From positions 185,194,001 to 185,258,000 of the forward strand of contig OZ024740.1 of NCBI GenBank assembly GCA_964016885.1: a stretch of DNA of 64,000 bases, written 5' to 3'. Shown in pieces: positions 10,825 through 63,716 of this stretch. The DNA is from Eledone cirrhosa (taxonomy: Eukaryota). Numbering within the stretch: position 1 is the stretch's first letter; every line of letters starts with the position of its first letter. The position numbers were made by a program, and so were the translations under genes. A model generated the notes under the pieces. The model had not been told where the DNA came from. It worked only from the letters and a program-made list of their open reading frames with translations, and made no database searches.

Positions 10825-11224
10825 AACTCAATAGGACAGTTAATTTTCCAAAGCGATCCCCGCCGGAAATAGATTTAAAAAATGGCTAACACTACACACT
10901 CTCATATATATAAGTATAAGCAACTGTATATATATATCCATATGCTTATTTGTGCTGTGTACTTTTTCTTTTGTGTTAACCTACAGTCTTACATGTGTAA
11001 GATATTTTGTTGTTGGTATACAACAAACTAATGGAAGGCACCAGGAAGATTAAGAAAATAGGAAATACTGAACTATGTTAAATGGATTTTGAGGTTTGAA
11101 AAAGTTTAGCTGAAAAGAAATTAATGCGAATATAAATCAAAATAGTTTTCTTTTTTATTTCCATATCAACTTTCATATTTTGATTACAGAAAATATATTA
11201 TTAGAATCTATGTATAATGTTTTC

Positions 11225-11758
11225 TTAATTAGACTAACGGCTTACAATTTTCGGGGAGGGGAAATTTGATTAAATTGACCCCAATGCATTACTGGTGCTT
11301 TATTTTATCGATCCTGTAAGGATGAAAAGCAAAGCCAACCTCAGTGGGATTTGAACATACAGTATAAAGGGCCATAACTCTATGCCTTAAAGCATGTTGT
11401 CTAGCGCTCTATGGATTCTGCCGACACCCAATTATAATAATAAGTGTTTCCAACTTATGTTGAAGGCCAGAAATGTTAGAGAAGAAGGGCACATGATAAA
11501 ATTGCTGCAGCATTGAGTGGTAATTCTTTTATTGATGCAGGAAAAATGAAAGGCAAAATGAATCTTAGTGGGATTAGTACTCAGAACCTAAAGAGCCAGT
11601 ACAAATTTTATCTGACAAACTATTGATTCTGTTAATCCACAAACCTAATGGTAATAATTGTTTCTACTTTTGGCACAAGGCTAGCAATTATCCCAATGCA
11701 TTACTGGTGCTTTATTTTATTGACTCCATAAGGAAAGGCAAAGTTAACTTCGGCGGGA
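11225..11758 (-). mobile_element. Cluster of three SINE family A copies separated by (AAT)n
   Basis: Repeated cattactggtgctttattttat..aaggatgaaa..gcaaag motifs at about 11290, 11530 and 11700. Confidence 0.75.
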
Positions 11759-11777
11759 ATAATAATAATAATAATAA

Positions 11778-12774: not shown

Positions 12775-12785
12775 AATAATAATAA

Positions 12786-13090
12786 TTATTTCTACTTTTG
12801 GCACAAGGCCAGCAATTATCCCAGTGCATTACTGGTACTTTATTTTATCGACCCCGTAAGGATGAAAGGCAAAGTTAACCTTGGCGTGATTTGAACTCAG
12901 ATCATAAAGGGCCGTAACTCTATGCTGCAAAGCATGGTGTCCGACCCTCTATAGGTACTGCCAATCCACCGCAATAATAATAATGGTTTCTGATTTAGGC
13001 ACAGGATCAACAATTTTTTTTTGGGGAAAAGTCAACTAAATCGACCCCAGTACATTACTGGTACTTTATTTTATTAACACCATAAGGATA
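12786..13090 (-). mobile_element. Full-length SINE family A plus adjacent partial copy
   Basis: Minus strand gcggtggattggcagt (A box)..gagttcaaatc (B box)..gcctttcatccttacggggtcgataaaataaagtaccag..gccttgtgccaaaagtagaa, then ATT repeats. Confidence 0.85.
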
Positions 13091-13196
13091 AAATGCAGAT
13101 CTTACATTAATCTTATCAACATTTAATTTAAAAATTAGGTATTAGGATTGGTGCTCTGAAATAGCAATGTATGTATAGTATATTTGGCAATATACC

Positions 13197-13236
13197 GCTC
13201 TGATGATGGCCAAACAGCGTGAAACAGACTGTTAGC
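13197..13236 (+). ncRNA. Type I hammerhead ribozyme motif, copy 1
   Basis: GCT-CTGATGA-TGGCCAAACAGCGT-GAAAC-AGACT-GTT-AGC; one stem II mismatch. Confidence 0.65.
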
Positions 13237-13473
13237 TGCTGTCACTTCTTTCGCTGAAAATAAGTAAGTGACATAGTCACTACTTTAAACTGATGGTGTA
13301 TGGTCTTCTAAATGTTTTTTAATTAAACATATGGTATATTGCCAAATATACTATACATAATTTTGTGTATACATCGCTCGTTCAGAGCACCTAATTTTTG
13401 CTGGACCAGCAATCGCTCTGTATAATCAGCTCTTGATTATTACTGGAATTCTATAAGAATCCAGCTTCTATAA

Positions 13474-13560
13474 TTTTCGGCGGAAGCAGGGGGTGCATGG
13501 CTCTGATGATCACCAAACAGCGTGAAACAGACTGTTAGCTTCTCTCCCTTCTTTCGCCAA
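13474..13560 (+). ncRNA. Type I hammerhead ribozyme motif, copy 2, with extended stem I
   Basis: ggcggaag..gca tg GCT-CTGATGA-TCACCAAACAGCGT-GAAAC-AGACT-GTT-AGC..ctttcgcc; consensus of the two copies gives stem II CGC/GCG with loop CAAACA. Confidence 0.7.
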
Positions 13561-15344
13561 AGGAAGTGACATAGTCACTACTTTAAACCGATAGCGTATG
13601 GTCTTCTAAATGTTTTTAATTAAACATAGGGTATATTGCCAAATATACTACACATTCACTCGTGAATATATTGCTATTTCAGAATACCAATCCTAATATA
13701 TATATATATATATTGCATTTTATGGTTTACATTACGACTAATGAAACATTTAGTAGTGCTAGAAAGTTAATTATATGAAACTAATTTCTCTCTAAAATTC
13801 ATGCTAAGATATATGAAAAAATGCTGCAAAAAAAAAAAAAAAATGAATCTCTTGGTAAGTGATAAAATAAGCTTATTTGAAGTCCAGCTTTTTCTCTTAT
13901 CATAGGGAAGGTTTGTTATGTGCCATGCGAATAGCGAATTAGGATCTGAATAAGCTCTAAATGTAAAACATAGCAAAAATAATACTAAAGCTGCCTACTG
14001 CTATATCAAAAGCTGAATTAATATTGCAATAGAATAACATTGTATACAAAATAAGTATGAGAGAAATGAAAATATTAGCAGGCAAGGGAAAGGGGAAGAG
14101 GGATAACATAAATATATTTAGTAGTAAGGTGTAAAGGTAGAAAAAATATATAATGTGCTAGGAAGCACTGTTGAAGAAAATTCATGAGAATTCTTCAAAG
14201 ATAGCAAAACAGGTTTACAACATACAAAACATCAATAGGTGAAAGTTTTTTTTATATGAAAGCATGCTGACCGACATAAATAATAGGGAGAAGGAAAAAG
14301 GGAAAACAATGATATGAGGAAATATTGGTCTAGGGGCAGTTAAATGTGTTTTTTATTTTGCAGAATTGGCAGATATTCTGGATTAAATGTGCTATGATGT
14401 TTAATTTTGTCACCTTGTACTGTAATCATATTCTGTCAGGATGAGTTTTGCATGTTGACCCTAAAACTGATAAAATATCTACGTAATATATTGAGGTTAA
14501 TTATAGTTAATGCCTACAAAACCTAGCTTTTTACCTCTAAAAGAAGCCAATGAATTAGGATTGTCATTATGTTGTGAAACAGAAAGTTTTGCGTCATTTT
14601 TTCTTGCTCTCTGTTCAATTTCCATTGAGTTTAACTTTATCTTACATTATTTTGGGGTTTGGTAAAATATAGTACCTATCCAAAATGATGTAATGAAGGA
14701 ATTATTAAGGCATCAGACAAGATACTTTCCATGATTCATTTCAAATCTTTATTCTGAGTTCTTATTTGATAGACTAAATCTGTCATCCAGTTTAATGGCA
14801 TAATGTTCTCTTCTTTGATTAAGCAATAGAAAAAAATATAGAAATATAAAAACAAACGGTAACTTTACTACTTTCTTGTTCATAAACATAAATGGAAAAC
14901 CATAGATCTGGTTGTACTTCACTAGATATACAACTTTATGCCAAAACATTTAGCAAGATAATTAGGTAATGCTACATGTTTTCAAGTATAGTTTCAGGAA
15001 TTCTTAAAATAGAATCTGTATCAGATAAGTGAATTTGCATAAGATAACTAAGACACTGATGCTTTGACTCACTTCTTTCTGATAAAATCTAAAACAAGAA
15101 TATTTGTAAAAATGTATGAGATAATATAATTATTTTTCAGAAATGTGATTGACAAAACCAAGTAAGCACTACTATACATGCTAGAATTTACCTGGAGAAA
15201 TATGTTGCTCAGTGCCTTGTCCATAATTTGCTTAACTGGTGAATGGAAGCCCTTTCGTATATGTTCTCTACTGAGAATTTCAACAGTTTCTAATTTAATT
15301 TTCAAAAAGGTTTTTTTTTTATCAGCACACTAGGCTTTAATAAT

Positions 15345-23544: not shown

Positions 23545-25208
23545 AATTATATAGAATTCACAAGAATCAAAGCTATGTTCAAAGCATTTATTCACTTACA
23601 ATTGTTTCATCCAAACCTAGGCTTGGAGTCTTCGGAGCGTTTTTCAATGTTTGTACACATAATTGACCGCCTTTCCAATGCAAGAGACATACAGATACAT
23701 ATATTGATGTACAGTGGAGTGACATATATTATACTATACTATTTTTGTACAGCAATTCAAATTCAAAATCAAAATTAAAATTAAAACAAAATTAAAACAA
23801 AATTAAGATACATTGGGCATTTAACACAGATAATGCAGGAGGATAGTTTGTTAGTCAGATGTAGTAGTTAGTGTATGCATTAGTTACACATGGGGCATGC
23901 AAGTGTGTCTCATTTATATATGATTATTGTGTGGCAGGGTGTTACATGTAATACAAGCACTTTAAGCGGGTAAGTAAGAGTATTATGGTGGTTGTAGTGG
24001 TAAGGTATTTTTTGTATAGAATTTTCTCTCTCTCTATATATATTTAAAAAAATAGAGGTGTGACACACGACTTGTGATATATTAGTAAAAAGGAAAAGAA
24101 AATGCTGACAAATTTTTCTCAGTGAAAAATAGTTTAATTAGGAATAAGTATAAATTAGTAATAAGTATTAGTTAGTATTCAGTTTTAGATTTAAGTTTTA
24201 CTGATGCGCTGGGTGTGGGTGGCTTTATCTTTAAATTTGTAGAGGGGAAAAATTCTAAAGTTGGGATGATTTTGGGCAGCACAGGTATCTCAGTGCTATT
24301 TTTCTGTATTCCCGTATTTTGATTTGGGATCTATGGACAGTCATGCGCTGGCGGTTTTAGTCTGGCATTTGTATTGTTCTCAACAACCTGAGCAAGTTAA
24401 TACATATATTAGGTTTTCTGATGTGCATGTGAAATTGTGTTTTACTATAACACGTTGTCCTTGTTTGAAATATAATTCCGAACCCTCTATTAGGTTGATG
24501 CATATACCACAGTTGAGTCTATCGTATTTTTTTTACTGTGGGTTTCGTTGTTGTGGTTGGCAGTACTTTGTCATGTGTTAGGATGTTTTTCATTGACTTA
24601 GATTGTCTTTTGCTCTTTATGATATCGTCTGTTCGAAGGATTTGGTTCATTCTATGGTCCTTTTTTAATACAGGGATGTTCTGGAGGATGGAGTCAAAGG
24701 CCTCATTGTTGAGGGGGTTGTGTGTGGATATGTATGGAAGAGCTTTTAGTTTCGGTTGATTAACTTTAGGGTGTCTAAGGTCCTGGGTACTGATTTTTAG
24801 GGCACGTTGCATTCCATTGTCAATTAGTGATGCAGGGTAGTCCCTCCTTATGAGTGTGTCCTTTAGTTCTTGTAAACGTAAGTAACAGGTGTTTTTATTG
24901 GAAACTATAGTACAGATTCTCTTGGCTAAGTTGTAGGGAATATTAATTTTAACGTGTCAAGGGTGGCATGAATTGAAAGGAAGATATTGCTTGGAGTCTG
25001 TGGGCTTGTAGTATATGTCTGTTTCTATTTTTTTGTTATTAATCTTAATGAGGATGTCGAGAAAGGGGAGTTGTTGATGGCTGTATTCCATTGTAAAATT
25101 AATATTCGTGTTCTGTCCATTTATAAGAGTGTGAAGTTCTTTAAGTTTCTCGATGTTTTCGTACCAAAGGATGAAGTAGTCAGCTAGATATCTCTTCCAG
25201 TTCTTTTC
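23545..25208 (-). mobile_element. 5'-truncated Penelope-like element (RT C-terminus, GIY-YIG endonuclease, 3' non-coding region with HHR)
   Basis: Minus-strand peptides WKRYLADYF, INFTME..LPFLDILI..TDIYYKPTDSKQYL.FNSCHP..NIPYNLAKRI, LPYISTHNP, and FTCTSENLIYVLTCSGC.EQY (GIY-YIG); several stops; (TA)n at the 5' junction; the 3' boundary is approximate. Confidence 0.85.
23593..23639 (-). ncRNA. Hammerhead motif downstream of the Penelope-like ORF
   Basis: Minus strand: CGCT-CCGAAGA-C-TCCAAGCC TA GGTTTGGA-T-GAAAC-AATT-GTA-AGTG; palindromic stem III ACAATTGT; core U4->C. Confidence 0.65.
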
Positions 25209-28230: not shown

Positions 28231-31200
28231 AAAGATGTGTGGGAATTTGGGAGGTTGGTTTATGGGCGTCTGTGAGGGGGGAAGTGGTTGGTGTATGGAA
28301 GGGGGAATGGAGGTCAAGGTGGTACATACCAGATGTATGCTTCAGCCTTGCTCATGGGTGGTATATGGAAGGTGGAGATGAAGATGGTGCATAATATATG
28401 CATGCTTTACCATGTGCTCATAGGAAGGCAGATCTTCTGTGTATGCATTTATAACTGTAAATATAGAGGATGTTATGGGATTGTATTGTCCTATAACTCC
28501 TGGCGGAGTTGTAAATGTTTTGTGGTGGCATATGGTTTTTCTTGGGCATTTTAAGAGCCCATCTCTTTCCCTGTCTGAATACAGCAGATTTCTTCAAGTG
28601 AAGGATAGAAAGTGAGAAAGAGATGTAGAGGAAAAACTGACTGAAGTACATTTTTATTGACCCCAAAATTATGAAAGTCAAATTTGCTCTCAGCAGGATT
28701 TGAACTCCAAGAGCCAGAAAGAATACCACAAAGCATTCTCATTGATGTTTTAGTGGCTCTTCCAATTCACCCCTGAGAACAGAGTATATAGACATGTAAA
28801 TATGTAAATTTGTATATTTCCTTAGAAATTGAAAAAAAAAAAAAAAATAATGAACATTCTGAAATGATTTTTTTTACCCTAATTGGGATTCTTATCAGGA
28901 AATACATAATTGATAGCTTTATAATACTTTGCAAGACTTTTCATATGTTCTGTTTCTTATGATGGTGGTTAATTTTTAATATATAATAAATTCCACACTA
29001 AGCATCCAAAGAATACGTTATATGTTGTATGCAATATATGCATGCCCACACAGAAAAAGAATAGCAATATATATATATTGAAGTGACATGATCACAACTT
29101 ATTAAAAAAATCATAGCAAGGTTAAAGGATATTTATTATACATAAACATTTTGTATATGATTCAATATACAACCCTCGTTATGTTTCATGATATGCCAGG
29201 GCATTACTGCTGCATATATATGTATATATGTATGTATATATATATAAATACACATATACAGACTAAAAGTATAACAATATAGATAGATATACATTTGTAT
29301 ATATAATGTTCATGTATAACTACACACATACACATAATTGAAAAAAAGAAACAGCTACAACCATTGAAAGAAAAATTGAGAGACGTGCAGACATACAGAC
29401 ATAATAGCTAGTCAGTGATTTCATCATTATAAAGAGGTTGAAGTTTTATCAACAAAGCTAATTTATATATCTGATGGAATCAACTGAATAGTAAATGCCA
29501 GAATCCCTTAAAATTTACAATCTTCGCCAGATCAATAGCTGCTATAATGTGCATTTTGTTTATCAATTCAAGAGAGAAATTTTTGGGAAAACGAGAAAGA
29601 TTGTAGAGCAAAAGAGAGAGAGAAAGATATGACTGATTTGGATAATCATTCCACCATTTCACCATGAATCTTTTTGTAAACTAAACAAGAAAAACAATAA
29701 AAAAAAACAGGCTACAAATTAAATCTAATCATTGTAAGATACAAAAGTAAAAGATAAAGCTCAGAGATTTAATAACAAAGTTAGCTACAGCATATGATAA
29801 TAAGATAACTGCTTCTCCCTCACCATAATAATAATAATAGCAATAATAATTGTACCGATATCAGTGATTTCATAAAGAGGATAATGCAGCACATTTGATT
29901 ACTGGAATCCCAGACTGAATCTAGAAGAAAAAATCATTGGAATGATGGATCAATAACCATATTCCTTGCTGACTCATACTGATTTTTTAAACACTATAGT
30001 TCTCCTTCTAAATTATATTACAAGTCATTATTCTACTGTTCTTGGAGGAATGAATATACATGTGTGAAGTTCATATCCGTTCTTTAAAGAAATAAAGAAT
30101 TCATAATTAGAATTGAGGGAAAATATCATGAATGAATCTAACAAAGAAATAAAACTGGAACAGTCAACCCAGTTTGTGAAATGGCAATGAAATATTTCCA
30201 TGTTCTAGAATTGTTATAATAAGAATTGTTTTTTTTTAATCATTTTCTTTTCACTGTTTAATCAGAGAGAGAGAAGGGTAGAGTACAAGACCTTTTGCAG
30301 GGTTTTCATGACTGTTGGGTGGGCCAGAGAATGGTATCCTTAAACTGGAAGGCTGATGCAAAGTCTTGTAACAGACTTGACTCCTTTAAAGATTCCCAAT
30401 ACAGTTGATTGTGTTAAAATAAGTGACTGATAAAGTTTAACATCCAGGATCAAAATATTTAAAGGGAAATGATATAATAAATTCAGTCATTCATACATGT
30501 GTGTTAACATTTTTAGAAGGGTATGAATACAGAACATACTAATACAAAACTAAATGTTGCAATGCATTCAGCCAGACACATGCTATGTGACATTTGGTAG
30601 AAAGCCAAATAAATATTTAAAGCAAAGGATATAGTTGATTAAAGTAGGCCTAGTACTTGACTGATACCTTGTTCTATCAACATTGAAACGACAGGTAAAT
30701 ACTATTCTTTCTTTAATCACACCTTATATCATAGATGATTTGCAGGCTAGCATAACAACTATGATCCATGGAAAAAGTGAGAATTAGCTGCAAAACATAT
30801 TTCAGAAAATTCAGAATCATGTTGCAGTTTTTATACATAATCAAAATTAACAATCTCAAGTACAACCAATTTTAAAATGTAATAAATTCTATGTTATACA
30901 TTGCATAGATTATTTATATTCTATATTGAACTAGCATCATACAAGTTTAAAATTGCACAAATAATTTATAATGGTAGTTTTATTGTCTTTATATATCTAT
31001 GAGTATGTGGATGTGTGCATGTGAGTTTGAGTTAGTAGAGAAGTATGACTGTATACTGTTTAATCCATACAATATTTTCATAGAAGCATTTTACACTTCT
31101 TCAGCAGATGCAGTAATTACTATTTAAATGGAACTGAAAATATCACTTTGCATGTATTTCGCAGAATACATCAACAAAACTATATTATTACTTTTTCATA

Positions 31201-31519: not shown

Positions 31520-32410
31520 CAGGGTGCGGACGATATTTGTTCACAAGATTACTGTCTAGGAAAAAATAACACAGTAGATATATTTTTAAAGATATATTTA
31601 TCAAACTTGGGTCAGTTTGTCTTCATGACTTGTTCTTTCGATTTCACTCAATAAACCCGCCATTGGCTTTGATGACGGCCTCAAGGCGGCCTCGGAACTG
31701 GCTACAGGCCTTCGTCACTGTCCCCTGACTTAGACCCCTAAAGGCACTTGTGATACTGGCCTTCAGATCGTCTTTCCTATTGCAGCTAGATCTGTTGGTA
31801 TCTTGTTCCACTGAGGCCCACACAAAGAAGTCAAGGGGGTTGCAGTCAGGCGAGCTGGGAGGCGAGATGCCAGGTGAAGTGAGGTCAACGAAGTTCTCTG
31901 ACAGCCAGGCTTGGGTCTTTCGGCCAGTATGGCAGGGCGCTTAGTCTTGCTGCCACACGTACGGCCTACCTGCAGCTACCTGGTTGATCCAGGGTTTTAC
32001 TACCTTGCTCAGAACGTGGATGTAGCCATTGGTGTTCAGCTTGAGGCCCTCAGGGAAGAAGTGAGGTGGCATGCCGTCACCTTGACTGCTGACGACACGT
32101 AAGACGAATGTTGTCGCTGGAAACTTTGTCTGCATGACTCTTGGCACGTCTTTGAATGAGACACCATTCTCCTGCTGACACTGAGAAAATCTGAAATTTC
32201 CTTATTTGTCCTCCCGGCGAGGATTCCAAGAAGAACTCCGTGTCTCTTCCACAAATTTGGAGGTTCAAAATTATTCATAATCAATTATTCTGAAAATAAA
32301 TAATGGAAATATAATCACTGTTTTTATGAAGACAAGAGTGACAACGGAAGAAAACAAATTTGCATAAAATTAGCAGTTGAAAATTGCGAACAAATATCGT
32401 CCACACCCTG
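31520..32410 (-). mobile_element. Internally deleted Tc1/mariner transposon, DD37D (maT) type
   Basis: TIRs cagggtgcggacgatatttgttc / gaacaaatatcgtccacaccctg with TA flanks; transposase WQQD*APCH..SPDCNPLDFFVW has 37 codons between the second and third Asp, including one stop. Confidence 0.9.
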
Positions 32411-33228: not shown

Positions 33229-34234
33229 ATGATGTGAACGCAGGAACACTTCAATCAATTTATTATATTCTATTATGACCATATTGAATATTGTTGTAGA
33301 AGATTCCATACTACTGTTTCAGGCAATATTCTGTCTGAATGTTTGTAAGAGAAGCAGTTAAATAAAATGTTCACGTGTGTATGTGTATGTATGTGTGTAT
33401 ATACAAATATGTATTTAAATATACATGTGTGTGTATAATAAACAATATCTGAATGTGTGTTTGTGAATCTGTTGTCGGTTTGTGTGAGTGACTATGTTGG
33501 TAGGGAAGTATAACTGTATACTGTTAAATCCATATAACGTTTTCATAGAAACATTCTACCTTTCTTCAGCAGTTGTGGTAATGTTTGTCTATATGGAACT
33601 GAAATTATCTCTTTACCTGTATTTCACTGTATATTTAAAAATACATCAACAAAATCTATATTGTTACTTATTCATACACAAGATCTTGCATTGTATTATT
33701 CTGTACTATTTATCTGTAATTTGATAAATGTTATCCTATTTCATTGTTTCTATCTACCATTGTATGCATATTATTTACAGGGTACATTACAGTTATAAGC
33801 TAGGTAGTTAGCATTAGCATCAGGGTATATATTTAATTCTAACTTAACCTAAATTTATGAGCAGGATTGAAGGTATTCCACTTTACATTTATGTGATATG
33901 TAAATAAAAATGTTCATCTGCTGTTCTTAGGGGCCTAATTATAAGGCTTACAGGAATTGGTGAGTGTAGAAAAATAATTTCCCCAGGCTATCTCAAGTAA
34001 CATCTGGTACTGGATTCAGAAAGCTTGATTTAACCATAGTCACAATATATAGATTTGCGCCCACACAAAGAGAAGATATTAAAAACGACATTACATTGTT
34101 TTAGACATTTGTCAAATGTTATAAGTTAGTAGGTGTATACCTTATTCACACGGAAATCTCACTTCTATATTTACGTCATATGCACACATATGATAGATGA
34201 TATATACAATATCTTATGATAAATATGATAAATG

Positions 34235-39711: not shown

Positions 39712-39903
39712 AATCTGTTATTTTAATAAATATTTGCTCTACGGTTCTTATATATTTTGTTATACTTTGGGAGGCTCATGTTGCCAATAAGAAACACACG
39801 CACCAGTTGCTTTCACTTCAATTTATTATAATAAATTTATAAATTTAGGAATTTATAAATTTCCAGTCGGTTGGTTCCACAACCAGATGATTGTTTATAT
39901 ATT

Positions 39904-39946
39904 GTCAAAGTTCTTTCGTCACACATTCTATGACCTCTTCAGTGAC
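39904..39946 (-). ncRNA. Minimal hammerhead motif, left arm
   Basis: Reverse-complement copy of 40049-40091. Confidence 0.6.
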
Positions 39947-40048
39947 TGGGGATTCTTTTCTTTGTTTTTGTTTGTGTGTTGACACAACACACACACAGGC
40001 GTAGGACAGAACAAAGGAGAGGCACAAAAACAAAGAAAAGCATCCCCA

Positions 40049-40091
40049 GTCACTGAAGAGGTCACAGAATGTGTGACGAAAGAACTTTGAC
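40049..40091 (+). ncRNA. Minimal hammerhead motif, right arm
   Basis: GTCA-CTGAAGA-G-GTCACA GAATG TGTGAC-GAAAG-AA-CTT-TGAC; 2-bp stem III, CUU triplet, one extra G before stem II. Confidence 0.6.
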
Positions 40092-41362
40092 AATATATAA
40101 ACAATCATCTGGTTGTGGAACCAACCAACTGACCGAAAATTTATAAATTCCTAAATTTATAAATTTATTATAATAAATTGAAGTGAAAGCACTGGTGCGT
40201 GTGTTTCTTATTGGCAACATGACCCTCCCAAAGTATAACAATATCGGTTTCAACACACGTTTTCAGATAAAGAATCTTGCTAAACAAATTCAGAAACGAA
40301 AAATCTTATATATTTGATATATATTTATCCTTATCGAGCCCTCTTTTGATTTTAGTCTTCAAATTTATTATTATATATATATATATACACATACATACAT
40401 ATCTCATATTGATGATGATGATATAAATTATTCTATAAATTTCACCAGAGTTCTCTATTCTAATAAAGCACAGTGTATCTACAAGTAATCCGCACTGATG
40501 AAATGAATGGATATTTACAGAAAACCAAGTTGAACAAAATGTTTTTGTTTGCCATCACACTTTTACTGAATATTATTATCAACAACAACATGCAAGACAA
40601 AATGTTGTATAAAGCATATATGTGTGTGCGTGTGTATTTCTTGTAGAGTGATTGTGCTAATACATTACTCACATTTTGTGTTCCTGAAATAATATGAGCA
40701 AAATTAAGTAATACATCTCTAGGATTATAATAAATTATTTTTTCTTTCCTCTTGCTGCACATTTTGAAAATTGAATATCATAAGATCAGAATGGTAATGT
40801 ATAAATGTATTCGTACATCATTTCATACTAAATATTAATGTATTAATGCAAGGAAACCTCATATACTATGACAACAGGCATCCTTATAAGAACATAAAAT
40901 AAAATGGCTTATAAATATTGATTACTTCATATTTTAAGGCAGCAGAAGAAAGAAGTAAATATGATTATTGATGTTCATGCCTTTCTCAGGGATATTAGTA
41001 GTACTGAAGTAAAACTATTTTCAACAATGAAACCAAATATATCATGTTATAGAAAGGCCTGCTGTGAGGTTATTTATTTTCTCTGCCAAACTTATGAAAA
41101 TGTATATAAGTGAAGACAAATTGCAGACTTATCAGATATTTTCGTTTTCCATCAACATTTCTTCTGCCTTATGCTACAGGGAGAATTCTAAATTAGTTGG
41201 ATTCCACAGATAAATGAATAAAATCATTTCAACAATAAGATCAGCTTTTCATCAATAATTTATGGTTTCTAAGTATTACTAAACATAATGAATTCTTTCT
41301 GAGTCCTTTAATATAATACTGAAAATGTTCACAACAATCGGTCCAATAGTATAAATACTATA

Positions 41363-43753: not shown

Positions 43754-45952
43754 TCATCATCATCATCATCACCGTTTTACGTCCGTTCTTCCACGCTAGC
43801 ATGGGTTAGACGGGTTGTCCTGGTGTGGGCAGTGTCTGGTCGGCTGACCATGCCTTGCTCATACAGGAACTGATTTGGCTTGATTTCTACAGCTGGATGC
43901 CCTTCCTAACACCAACCTCATTTACAGTGAGTGCTGGGTGCTTTTTCGTGGCGCCTACACGTCCACTTTACAGTGTGGGCTGGGTGCTTTTTTTGCTATG
44001 GCACCTCCACGACCACCTTGGGGTGTGGGGCATATTGTCTATATGCTTCAGCTTGTACCCATGGAAGGTTGGGTACTCTGTATTACTGCGTGACGCCAGA
44101 GGTTATGGTCGTGTGTCATCGCCTTTGAGAGGTGTAATTGGGTAAGGTCGGCTTTTATCACCTCATCCCAGGTCATCTTGGGTCTCCCCACTCCGCGGTT
44201 TCCATCGACTTCTAGTGCTCTGCACCTTTTTATGCAGCTGTCATCCTTCATACGCATCACATGTCCATACCAGCGCAACCGCCTCTCCTGCACACAGCAT
44301 TTGATTCCTCTTATGCTCGGTCTCTCTCTCAATTCATTTATGCTTTGTTGTTCGCGTATATTACTGTTACACATCCATCGGAGCATGCAGGCTTCGTTTC
44401 TCTCTAATCTATGTAAGTCTTCCACCTTCAGCGCCCAGGTCTCACTACCATGCAACATCGCTGTTCGGATACACGCATCATACAGTCTGCTTTTCATTTT
44501 GAGGGAGAAGCCTTTTCTAGCAAGCAGTGGTAGTAGTTCCCTAAACTTCTTCCATCCCGTTCTTACCCTAGTTATTGTACTTTCTGAACACCCACCTCCG
44601 CTGCTAATTCGGTCACCTAGGTAGTAGAAGCTGTCTACTGTTTCTACAGAGCCCTCCCAGAGATTGGTGGTATTTGTTTCCTGTGGCTGTTTGCTGCTTG
44701 CTGTCCCAGCACAGCTGCTGCATGTGAAGCCTACATTCTTAATTAAGCTTCCTGAGATCCCGCTACATCTCTTGTGTACCCATTGTTTGCATTTGGGGCA
44801 GAGAATGGAGTTCCTACCTACACCTTTCCTACATACTGAGCAAGGCCATTTCCCTGAGGGGATCTGGGTTCTGTTTTCTCATCTACTTACAAGGACCTTA
44901 GTCTTTGTCATGTTGACTTTGAGACCCTTTCTTTCTAGTCCCTGCTTCCAAGTTTGGATTTTCTTCTCTAGTTCTACCATAGATTCAGCTATAACTGCGA
45001 GGTCATCAGCATACAGGAGTTCCCATGGCATCCGGTCTTAAACTCCTCCGTTATTGCCTGCAGGACTATGATGAACAGGAGGGGCTAAGAACAGAGCCCT
45101 GGAGGACCCCAACCTGTACGCTAAATTCCTCGCTATACTCATAGCTAATCCTAACTTTGCTGACTGCTCCCCTATACATGGCTTGTACAGCTTTCACAAG
45201 TCATTCATCTACTCCTAGTTTTCTAAGAGCCCACCAGATTACAGCACGTGGAACTCTGTCAAAGGCTTTCTCAAGGTCGACAAATGCCAAGTAGAGTGGC
45301 TTACTTTTAGCTAGGTACTTTTCCTGTAACTGCCTGACAAGGAAGAGGGCATCAGTGGTGCCGCTTCCTGCTACAAACCCAAATTGCATCTCGTCTAGTT
45401 TCCCCCGGTCCCTAATCAACTGTGCTATAACTCTTTCTGTTACTTTCATGACCTGGTCCATCAGCTTTATACCTCTGTAATTACCTCTATCTAGTGCATC
45501 ACCTTTACCTTTGTAGCAGTTGACAATGATGCTACTGCACCAATTTGTTGGTATGACACCTTCTAGTATTACCTGGTTAACAATACGTGTGGTTATAGTG
45601 TGACCTACAGACCCAGATGCCTTCAGCATCTCGGCGTCTATACCCGATGGACCGGTTGCCTTCCCCATCTTCATATCTTTGATTGCCTTACTTACTATAT
45701 TGCTGCTGACTTGTACTGCTGGCCCCTCTATAGGGTCTACTTGAGGTAGGGTCTCTTCTTCCCATGCATTCTCCTCATTTAGTAATCTATCATAATGACT
45801 CTTCCATGCATCTTTCTTCTCAACACTTGTGAGGGCAAGCTCACCTTTATCATTCCGGATATACTTCTCTACAATGACATCACAATTCTCTCTGACACAC
45901 TGCCTCGCAATCTTGAACACCTCCTGTTTCTGGTCCTCACGTTGCAAAACAT
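43754..45952 (-). mobile_element. 5'-truncated RTE-clade LINE (reverse transcriptase, PHD finger, C-terminal domain, 3' UTR, (GAT)n tail)
   Basis: GKATGPSG, NYRGIKL, QFGF..G.GTTDA, AFVDLEKAFDRV, LLYADDL, MLHGSETW, RRLRWYGHV, GRPKMTW; stop at 45201 and a frameshift near 45030. Confidence 0.95.
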
Positions 45953-46201
45953 GCTTGAATATATATATATATATAAATACACACATGCACACACACACTC
46001 ACATATATATATATATGTGTGTGTGGGTGGGTGTGTGGGTGTGTGTGCATAGAGATATGTATATATATATAATCAACACAGTTCATCTAATGCCAAAACA
46101 TACATTTTAGGAATACTAGATAGACAAACTAATACTACAAAGTTTAGCTTACATCATCTCCCTGGCTGCAGTTTTGGGACTCAAAAGACAATACTAAATA
46201 T

Positions 46202-56028: not shown

Positions 56029-57677
56029 ACAGACATAATGACATTTATTCTAATCAGGCAACACCCACTGATTTTTGAGTTCTTTCATGTTACCATTCTT
56101 AAAACAAAGCAGGAAATAGACTCGAAGCAATTATTTAAATTTGTAATTCAATAAGATATTTTTCTTTACAATTCAGCTTTAAGGGACCATTCAAAGTATG
56201 TTGTCGCTATAAAACCTCCATTGAAAATGTTACTATTGTATTTCTAAAAGCAATGTTATATTCAAATTTTCCCTTTTGCTATTAGCTTTATAGTTTTAAA
56301 CATTTTATAGCTGAAAATGTTCAATCCATTGTTTCAGCTTACACTGCATGAATCTTAGACTAAATTGAGATGGAGTTGAGTTTGTTACCATTTGTTTAAC
56401 TTACGTCAGATTTTCTGATCTAACATATTTCTTGAGATTTCAGTAGTGTGTTGGAATACATATTGAAAATGCTACTTTCACTTTCCATGATACTCAAGAG
56501 TGTATGAATTCAAACATTTTATTGTGTCTGGAAGGAGGAGATACATGTCTCCATTGACATCATAGGATCTGACGAGATCAATGCAGTTGAAACGTTGCCA
56601 GTCAACTGCTGCAGGACATTCATGAGCTTGATACGAATTCCAGGAAGCTGACATTCTGGAAAGGATTTGGGTTTTGTGGTTAGTGTAAAGAAACAGAGGA
56701 ATGAAAGAATTTAAAAGATGGGATGATCATACTTGTAACGCGTTTCAGCATAGGCTTGCTCCATCAGGACCAACGTATGGGCTAAATAACAACAGCTAAG
56801 TAATTTAGACTCAGAATATTTGTCTAGAAGCTAATGATTTTATATTTCTCATATTGAAAGATTATCGAACTTCATTTCTGTTTACACTTATTGGTGGGAT
56901 ACCAAATTGAAACCGGAAAATAGAATAAAGATATAATCAGCTACATCTTTATTTTCGTAATTGAGTTTAGAAGTAATGTTGTTCTGTATATCTATTGATC
57001 TTTTCAGCAAAGTACGATTATCAAATTTCATCAGGTATCCTTGACGGCGTGAATACAATGTAAGCCACAGTAAAACTGCAACTCAATGAATGCATTATGT
57101 TGTATCGGATATATCTTGAAGTCGCATTTTCAAAACACTGTGACAAAATAGTGGTGTATGAAGGTATATGCGTGGCAAAAAGTTTGTGTGTGTGATGTGC
57201 AAAGTCCATGCATATTATGGGCACCTTTTTTCCATTTTCATTTCTGCTCGCTTTCTCCACTTTTTGCAAATTTGAATGAAATTAGATTTACAACTTTCGC
57301 GTATGATTTGTGAAGTTTTCAAAGAAGCCAAGTTTGAGTGTTATGATATAATTACGTAGTGAAAATTCTTTGAAAGAGAGTCGTGTATTACACAAGTATG
57401 TGTCCGGTTGGTAAATAGAACGTCAGATGTTGTATTCTTTCATGGCATAAGTTATAAACAAAATACTAGATAATTTTGAAAAAGGTTATGCCCCGGCAAA
57501 AATGTTTATGGGAATCGATAAAATAATTTTATTACGATGTACTTTACCATTCATTACAATATATATCTGTATATATATATATATACATAATATATTTATA
57601 CATATGTGTGAATGTGTGTATATATATATATATAAATATATATATATATGCACATTTATATATATATGTATGTATAC

Positions 57678-63137: not shown

Positions 63138-63716
63138 TTTCAGTATACATATGTGGATGTACATTTTTAACTTAATTGTTTAAGCGCCAGTCATACAAAA
63201 GTGAGTTACAAACGAAACGAAATTTAATTTCGTTTCGTTATTTGTTTTTATCGTCTCCGCTGAACCGGTACGTACTCACGCTCTATGCAAATTAGTCTGC
63301 CCACTACTAATTTTCATAGAAAAAGCATATAACGATATGTGCTTTTACGATTCTCTAGAAAGGCCGGAAGATAGGTAAATATTGCTGATGAGATGTAACA
63401 ACATCGAAACTAGTCCAATATTCCTTGTCTGGCTTTCTGGAGAATAGAGGAAAGGTGTTTCCTCAAAAACCAGTATGACTCTAAAAACCGGTTTGTCTGT
63501 GTGTTTACATACAGAATAGCTGGACACTCACAGTAAAGTGACCAGTGAAAAACTCGGTACATCTACATATGTACACGTATGTGTATTCATATGCATACTA
63601 GTATTTCAGTATACATATGTGGATGTACATTTTTAACTTAATTGTTTAAGCGTCAGTCATACAAAAGTGAGTTACAAACGAAACGAAATTTAATTTCGTT
63701 TCGTTATTTGTTTTTA
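63136..63716 (+). mobile_element. Retrozyme-like element: 466-bp unit with about 114-bp terminal direct repeat, inserted in (TA)n
   Basis: tttcagtatacatatgtggatg...tttgtttttat at 63138-63251 and 63604-63716; central HHR. Confidence 0.88.
63351..63445 (+). ncRNA. Type I hammerhead ribozyme motif (canonical core, extended stem I)
   Basis: AATATTG-CTGATGA-GATGT AACA ACATC-GAAAC-TA-GTC-CAATATT (63378-63422); stem I continues via AGG/CCT and ATTCTCTAGAAAG/CTTTCTGGAGAAT. Confidence 0.9.

Follow-up and report, generated by a model that had tools for sequence, protein, structure and literature searches.

The element at 13130..13698 of the window, the whole stretch of 64,000 nucleotides of Eledone cirrhosa DNA analysed here, is very probably a non-coding hammerhead repeat of the non-LTR retrozyme kind, an old insertion likely to have been written by a Penelope-like (PLE) reverse transcriptase-endonuclease. 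An earlier note on this DNA had recognised a tandem of the retrozyme type, and rightly so: each short unit carries a type I hammerhead and is non-coding. That note missed that the inverted arm, 3' ends fixed at two sites, and (TA)n targets together make up a Penelope-like insertion footprint. The surrounding window is AT-rich, microsatellite-rich animal DNA, and the element within it is laid out as follows, unit positions being numbered from the predicted cut site.

13130..13197, minus strand: inverted, 5'-truncated arm, unit positions 99-178 with a 12-nt deletion inside (BLAST against the family consensus; inverted repeats I1, I3, I4 and I6)
13197..13262, plus strand: hammerhead copy 1, truncated (from the sequence)
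13234..13536, plus strand: one unit, predicted cut site to cut site, 303 nt, 37% GC, with a 12-nt deletion after 13391
13474..13559, plus strand: hammerhead copy 2 with full extended stem I; core 13503-13509, GUU 13534-13536
13537..13698, plus strand: terminal partial unit, positions 1-168, stopping at the family's long 3' end
13664..13698, plus strand: tail of 27-35 nt from short end to long end, the short end being positions 133-141 (window 13663-13671)
13699..13713, plus strand: (TA)n microsatellite, the presumed target (from the sequence)

The two CTGATGA cores, at 13200 and 13503, lie exactly 303 bp apart, as first noted; each leads into a short hairpin, then GAAAC, a near-palindromic stem III and one GTT triplet (13231-13233 and 13534-13536), and predicted cuts after 13233 and 13536 bracket 303 nt. 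In copy 1 the core occupies 13200-13206, stem II 13207-13220, GAAAC 13221-13225 and GUU 13231-13233. The left arm and the main arm overlap by 1 nt at their junction. This inverted end had been described as mimicking a terminal inverted repeat (TIR), and mimicry it is (33 nt, 91%), but its extent was drawn too short: the arm reaches 13130, 11 nt further left, and its 12-nt deletion at the short site is bounded by direct repeats.

The locus is an old, decayed copy of a subfamily that we call B, and is probably inactive. Both stem IIs are broken, that of copy 1 by a C>G change and that of copy 2 by a basal U.U and by an A.C mismatch that CpG decay has produced; copy 1 is down to 3 nt on the 5' side of stem I, its hammerhead fold is absent from the MFE structure, and the cut triplet of both is GUU. 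GUU is a weak cleavage triplet. The earlier note had the locus releasing a unit-length RNA of 303 nt; judged by its sequence this would be unlikely, because stem I of copy 1 has nearly gone, its distal part entirely, and stem II is broken in both copies, and moreover the founding unit measured 315-316 nt. Folded as a circle, the window unit (approximated, shifted 1 nt downstream) gave a z of -3.8, against -6.5 for the family consensus (40 shuffles each). Rfam returned no match at gathering score over the window and, below gathering, a weak Hammerhead_HH9 match to copy 2 (13485-13558, E 3.3). Searches of the element found no ORF of at least 130 aa, no ORF with reverse transcriptase (RT) and GIY-YIG motifs, and no tRNA gene.

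A monomer query of the 3.0 Gb genome gave 3,210 first-look candidates, 40 of which were scored. The majority consensus of 30 monomers defines a family unit of 315-316 nt, which the window copy matches at 89% with gaps counted; the 303 nt of the window unit, which the 12-nt deletion and some small indels account for, is a local variant and not the family unit. The family is a dispersed repeat of thousands of copies: an exact 34-mer taken from outside the ribozyme has 1,258 occurrences and is intact in 41 of 142 sampled segments, so that the part in question should number some 4,400 copies or more, the sample favouring well-kept copies. Divergence of 3.6-4.1% at non-CpG and about 12% at CpG positions marks the family as old. 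The exact 37-nt core of subfamily A recurs 126 times in the genome and the exact 34-nt core of subfamily B 75 times, reversed controls scoring 0, and the cores are therefore not a matter of chance; since sampled cores were exact in 4/21 (A) and 2/19 (B), each subfamily comes to roughly 700, a rough figure. In loci picked without use of the pattern, A at 10.1 goes with GUC in 19 of 40 cores and U at 10.1 with GUU in 15; the remaining 6 are mixed. Loop II, in the pattern-matching cores of loci L001-L030, is CAACCA in 16/21 of subfamily A, and CAAACA in 7/19 or CAACCA in 6/19 of subfamily B.

As to transcription, contigs from four runs of one study, their kind unrecorded, contain the family at 90% or more and are silent on expression, and no piece spanning the window locus was found among them. 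The A/B unit contains no octamer of the snRNA promoter type, and comparison of the upstream 90 nt of two U6 and two U2 genes with three family units gave no local match above shuffles. Tandem arrays of U6 and U2 snRNA genes lie at C19:31.78-31.84 Mb and C3:307.35-307.45 Mb, and some U6 genes have their octamer only about 76 nt upstream. RNA-editing scars in the family show no clear excess (A>G 52/4283 and 66/5575, T>C 36/4064 and 59/5390).

The consensus fold has a long stem I, a short stem III and a stem II of 4 bp in subfamily A or of 3 bp plus U.U in subfamily B. The other family copies agree with the stem II CGC/GCG and loop CAAACA that the earlier note had restored from the two window copies; family-wide, loop II is CAACCA or CAAACA, and the stem I internal loop is GUAC or GUGC opposite UC. 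The extended stem I of that note also stands, though what it took for a UG bulge is part of the GUAC/GUGC internal loop. The resemblance it had seen to the Schistosoma loop CAAAUA matches the published structure, where the internal loop is UCCA:GUAC and the tertiary contact involves its first U, its last C and the last A of loop II (PMC2632901). All of these contact bases are present in the family, whose ribozyme, by its sequence, is a full-length type I hammerhead with Schistosoma-type contact bases, the contact itself being putative. Shared too with the Schistosoma mansoni hammerhead are a six-base loop II that starts with CAA and ends in A, a proximal stem I of six positions, and an internal loop whose 5' arm reads GUAC (A) or GUGC (B) and whose 3' arm supplies the first U. 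The family departs from it in replacing G10.1-C11.1 by A-U (A) or U.U (B), in the GUU of B, in a U.U within proximal stem I and an internal loop that is shorter on its 3' side, and in its much longer distal stem I and near-palindromic stem III.

Two sister families widen the comparison. Family C has a unit of 318 nt and 77% identity, G10.1-C11.1 and GUC, and a TTGATAA core in 39 of 41 motifs (overlapping loci counted); a young family has a 310-nt unit at 68% identity, with U.U, GUA and identical adjacent units. At 10.1-11.1, then, A-U belongs to subfamily A, U.U to B and the 310-nt family, and G-C to family C only. We had considered that the U.U of subfamily B was mere decay, and rejected this on finding it in the young family too. 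The U3-A8 core of family C is likewise no novelty, having been published for Cercyon PLEs (PMC4209133). Further members of these groups show some variety: family C (L130-L159) has a fully palindromic stem III and several stem II variants, units in its arrays at L146/L147 and L155 differ by about 9%, and loci L167 (1325-1593) and L177 hold a close subfamily, about 87% identical to A/B, with a TTGATAA core and an altered stem I. At L103:2150-2200 a family C insertion has as its 5' junction an inverted piece of about 33 nt of flanking host DNA, a fold-back at the target.

Fifteen hand-picked sequences from four lineages served for covariation. In this set 89% of cells pair, as against 36-54% in slid controls, and 11 of 28 pairs show changes on both sides, C3-G8 to U3-A8 among them; in shuffles two of four measures were clearly supportive, the number of both-side-change pairs was matched in 50/500 and is not significant, and further pair types fell below the shuffles. 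The aligned helices do covary between sister families, by few independent events in about four lineages. Among genomic copies of the family the core is no better conserved than the rest (substitutions 20/607 against 330/10926, P 0.7), and hence there is no within-family support for the ribozyme, as is to be expected of copies that are dead after insertion.

The evidence for the mode of insertion comes from the ends. We mapped 83 loci (30 best monomer matches and 60 exact-core matches less 7 overlaps; 2 near-duplicates were then dropped), and checked the result on a second sample of 27 loci with 48 arms, chosen by a motif outside the ribozyme. The 3' ends of the 121 arms of at least 60 nt cluster at two places: 58 at 126-142 (short), 35 at 160-178 (long) and 28 elsewhere, with 41 exactly at position 141 and 21 at 168. 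The second sample agrees, 11/48 arms ending exactly at 141 and 10/48 at 168. A TA-rich flank adjoins 39/58 short and 28/35 long ends, 67/93 together; the short end is ambiguous from 133 to 141 because the template there is itself (TA)n-like, whence a tail of 27-35 nt. Two-armed, head-to-head loci number 44 of 105, of which 14 have an unclassifiable end; in the classifiable ones one arm ends short and the other long in 29/30 (binomial P 3e-8), and the single exception, long with long, is the window copy.

This footprint has close counterparts among PLEs that carry the endonuclease (EN+). Their insertions consist of partial tandems with an inverted, 5'-truncated copy, are biased to microsatellites, and have a tail of 30-40 bp that is often one-sided (Craig et al. 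2021, PMC8557442). In vitro the anole PLE protein cuts and extends both strands of AT-rich DNA, and two internal start sites on its RNA delimit the tail (Frangieh et al. 2024, PMC11167929). The family has the partial tandem, the adjacent inverted and 5'-truncated copy, the microsatellite or AT-rich target, a one-sided tail as from two RT start sites and a hammerhead upstream of the end; it differs in having no ORF, and its short start site, being (TA)n-like, could pair with the target, whereas that of the anole PLE is not homologous to the cut DNA (PMC11167929).

Non-LTR retrozymes were defined, their circles demonstrated and PLE helpers proposed by Cervera and de la Pena (2020, PMC7229834). 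For animal retrozymes that helper role, and a PLE origin, have so far been argued from co-occurrence and pLTR similarity (Li, Clavereau and Pollet 2026, 10.64898/2026.07.22.740005); the pairing of a short with a long end in 29/30 is direct genomic evidence for the PLE route, and fits the start sites found in vitro. The family resembles metazoan non-LTR retrozymes in its type I hammerhead per short tandem unit, in a non-coding unit within 150-450 bp and below 50% GC, and in the PLE helper proposed for it. It is unlike them in that its copies are mostly of about 0.3-2.5 units, have an inverted arm and ends fixed at two sites, and lie in (TA)n targets. In the accessible text of PMC7229834 the word 'inverted' is absent, and in that of 10.64898/2026.07.22.740005 'tail' is absent and 'inverted' occurs only within a reference; there, 1/9 genomic dimers tested cleaved. 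No published cephalopod retrozyme turned up in titles and the starts of abstracts, and supplements may list such families.

What served as template is less sharply defined by the arms. Their 5' junctions are spread over the whole unit, and so the junction 3 nt before the first CTGATGA of the window, to which the earlier note gave weight, has no particular meaning. Nor is there any pile-up of 5' ends within 5 nt of the cut site (1/121, 4.2 expected; 0/48), and we rejected cut RNA ends as stop points on this ground. Instead 107/121 arms cross the cut site 1-3 times, as do most loci of the second sample (not at all in 5 of 27, once in 16, two or three times in 6). Both results would suit a Penelope-type insertion whose template was solely an uncut linear multimer RNA from tandem arrays, ribozyme and circles having no part in movement, as would the spread of subfamily B, about as wide as that of A in spite of GUU and U.U, and the finding that PLE insertion in vitro tolerates ribozyme mutants, cleavage being dispensable (PMC11167929). 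We regard this as a serious minority possibility. A circle would equally give read-through without pile-up, however; between sister families both stems I and II and the 3-8 core pair have undergone compensatory changes, which point to selection on the fold, and repeats of this kind are known to form circles in coral, mussel and axolotl (PMC7229834). The template was thus likely a circular or an uncut multimeric RNA, which the data fit alike. Private substitutions are common to units of one insertion 3-6 times as often as to separate insertions, both along an arm (19/354 in tandem) and between arms (18/290 and 4/126, against 1130/111854), and the subfamily marker is concordant in 34/38 multi-ribozyme loci; this fits one template species per insertion, though the signal is small and gene conversion could also give it.

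It is quite improbable that the pieces are solo pseudo-LTR remnants, that is, 3' ends, of an autonomous Penelope element. PLE 3' ends do bear hammerheads and occur in the same arrangements, tandem and inverted (PMC4209133), and the window has an instance at 39754-40292, where two 3' ends of a coding PLE (L111-L129) stand head to head at 91% identity, each with a hammerhead (cores 39942 minus, 40053 plus). Against this, long arms in the 83 and 27 loci never run into an ORF, the next sequence always being another 316-nt unit, and family C forms pure arrays of at least 7 units. Were the element a plain TIR MITE, derived from a DNA transposon that targets TA and bearing a hammerhead-like motif by chance, this would explain the terminal inverted repeat and TA flanks of the window copy, but the idea can be set aside as refuted, since two arms are present in only 44/105 loci, junctions and arm lengths differ freely from copy to copy in place of symmetric fixed TIRs and a uniform internal length, the ends are different sites in 29/30, and the ribozyme helices covary; that other copies might prove to be such MITEs was the outcome that the earlier note had named as fatal to its reading, and they are not.

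A retrozyme insertion by a Penelope-like enzyme could proceed as follows. A master array would be transcribed, and the ribozyme would cut the RNA, probably aided by two copies pairing through the palindromic stem III; a host ligase would circularize the unit, and uncut multimer may serve as template too. The Penelope enzyme would then cut both strands of a (TA)n tract and copy from each DNA end, one copy starting at the short site and the other at the long site. Each copy would traverse the ribozyme site and stop at a random point, whereupon the two would be joined head to head. Neutral decay would follow insertion, and the window locus would by now probably cut poorly or not at all.

Coding PLEs are abundant in the genome. 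One of them, at L111-L129, with RT and GIY-YIG motifs, carries a hammerhead of its own, in which position 17 is U, and shows the two-end pattern, nine displayed copies ending short in 4, long in 3 and otherwise in 2. The two PLE families tested for the family's ends were those found through ORF fragments beside family copies. From their RT, linker and GIY-YIG motifs and end structure we take both ORFs to be PLE, Pfam giving 0 matches in 2/2. Neither showed same-strand homology to the element ends, and the one match, on the opposite strand, was weak and of low complexity; nor, among the matches listed for 30 sister-family loci, was there a repeat-linked ORF. One PLE copy, L113, has in its 3' non-coding part a dense run of sense-strand A-to-G changes relative to sister copies, such as hyper-editing of the RNA prior to its reverse transcription would leave. 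The window holds what are presumably a PLE-like ORF fragment (24519-24956, minus) and LINE-like RT fragments (44048-45998, minus).

The short start site is (TA)n-like in all three sister families, and the array of the young family at L031:1-900 ends at this same site in (TA)n. A 17-nt block at positions 140-156, running from the short start site into the tail, is invariant in three aligned sister units; at the window locus (13670-13686, within the tail) it has decayed. The block may be a recognition site of the enzyme. One might speculate, and we hold this to be doubtful as a whole, that one retrozyme lineage swept the genome in waves (316-nt, 318-nt U3-A8, young 310-nt), its ribozyme rebuilt by compensatory changes while the invariant 17-nt block was the handle of a dimeric Penelope enzyme on the RNA circle, with one subunit starting at each fixed site, the short one by pairing of TA-like RNA with the cut (TA)n; the weakened GUU/U.U ribozyme of B would then have spread as well as the canonical one. 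The natural variants A-U/GUC, U.U/GUU, U3-A8/GUC and U.U/GUA, together with the invariant block, are ready substrates for testing.

Other repeats in and around the window deserve mention. A very abundant, unrelated short interspersed repeat lies directly left of the element (11214-11760 and 12775-13097). At 63350-63445, beside (TA)n, is a separate, well-formed type I hammerhead of another family, set in a long stem (core 63385, 4-bp stem II, GUC). Further CTGANGA...GAAA motifs, all putative, occur at 31076-31104 and 33541-33569 on the minus strand, these two being related to each other, and at 32089-32123 and 56569-56592. Elsewhere in the genome, loci L003, L005, L007, L023 and L148 contain another abundant hammerhead repeat, with a TTTC stem II and GUC, often as mirror pairs joined at the core.
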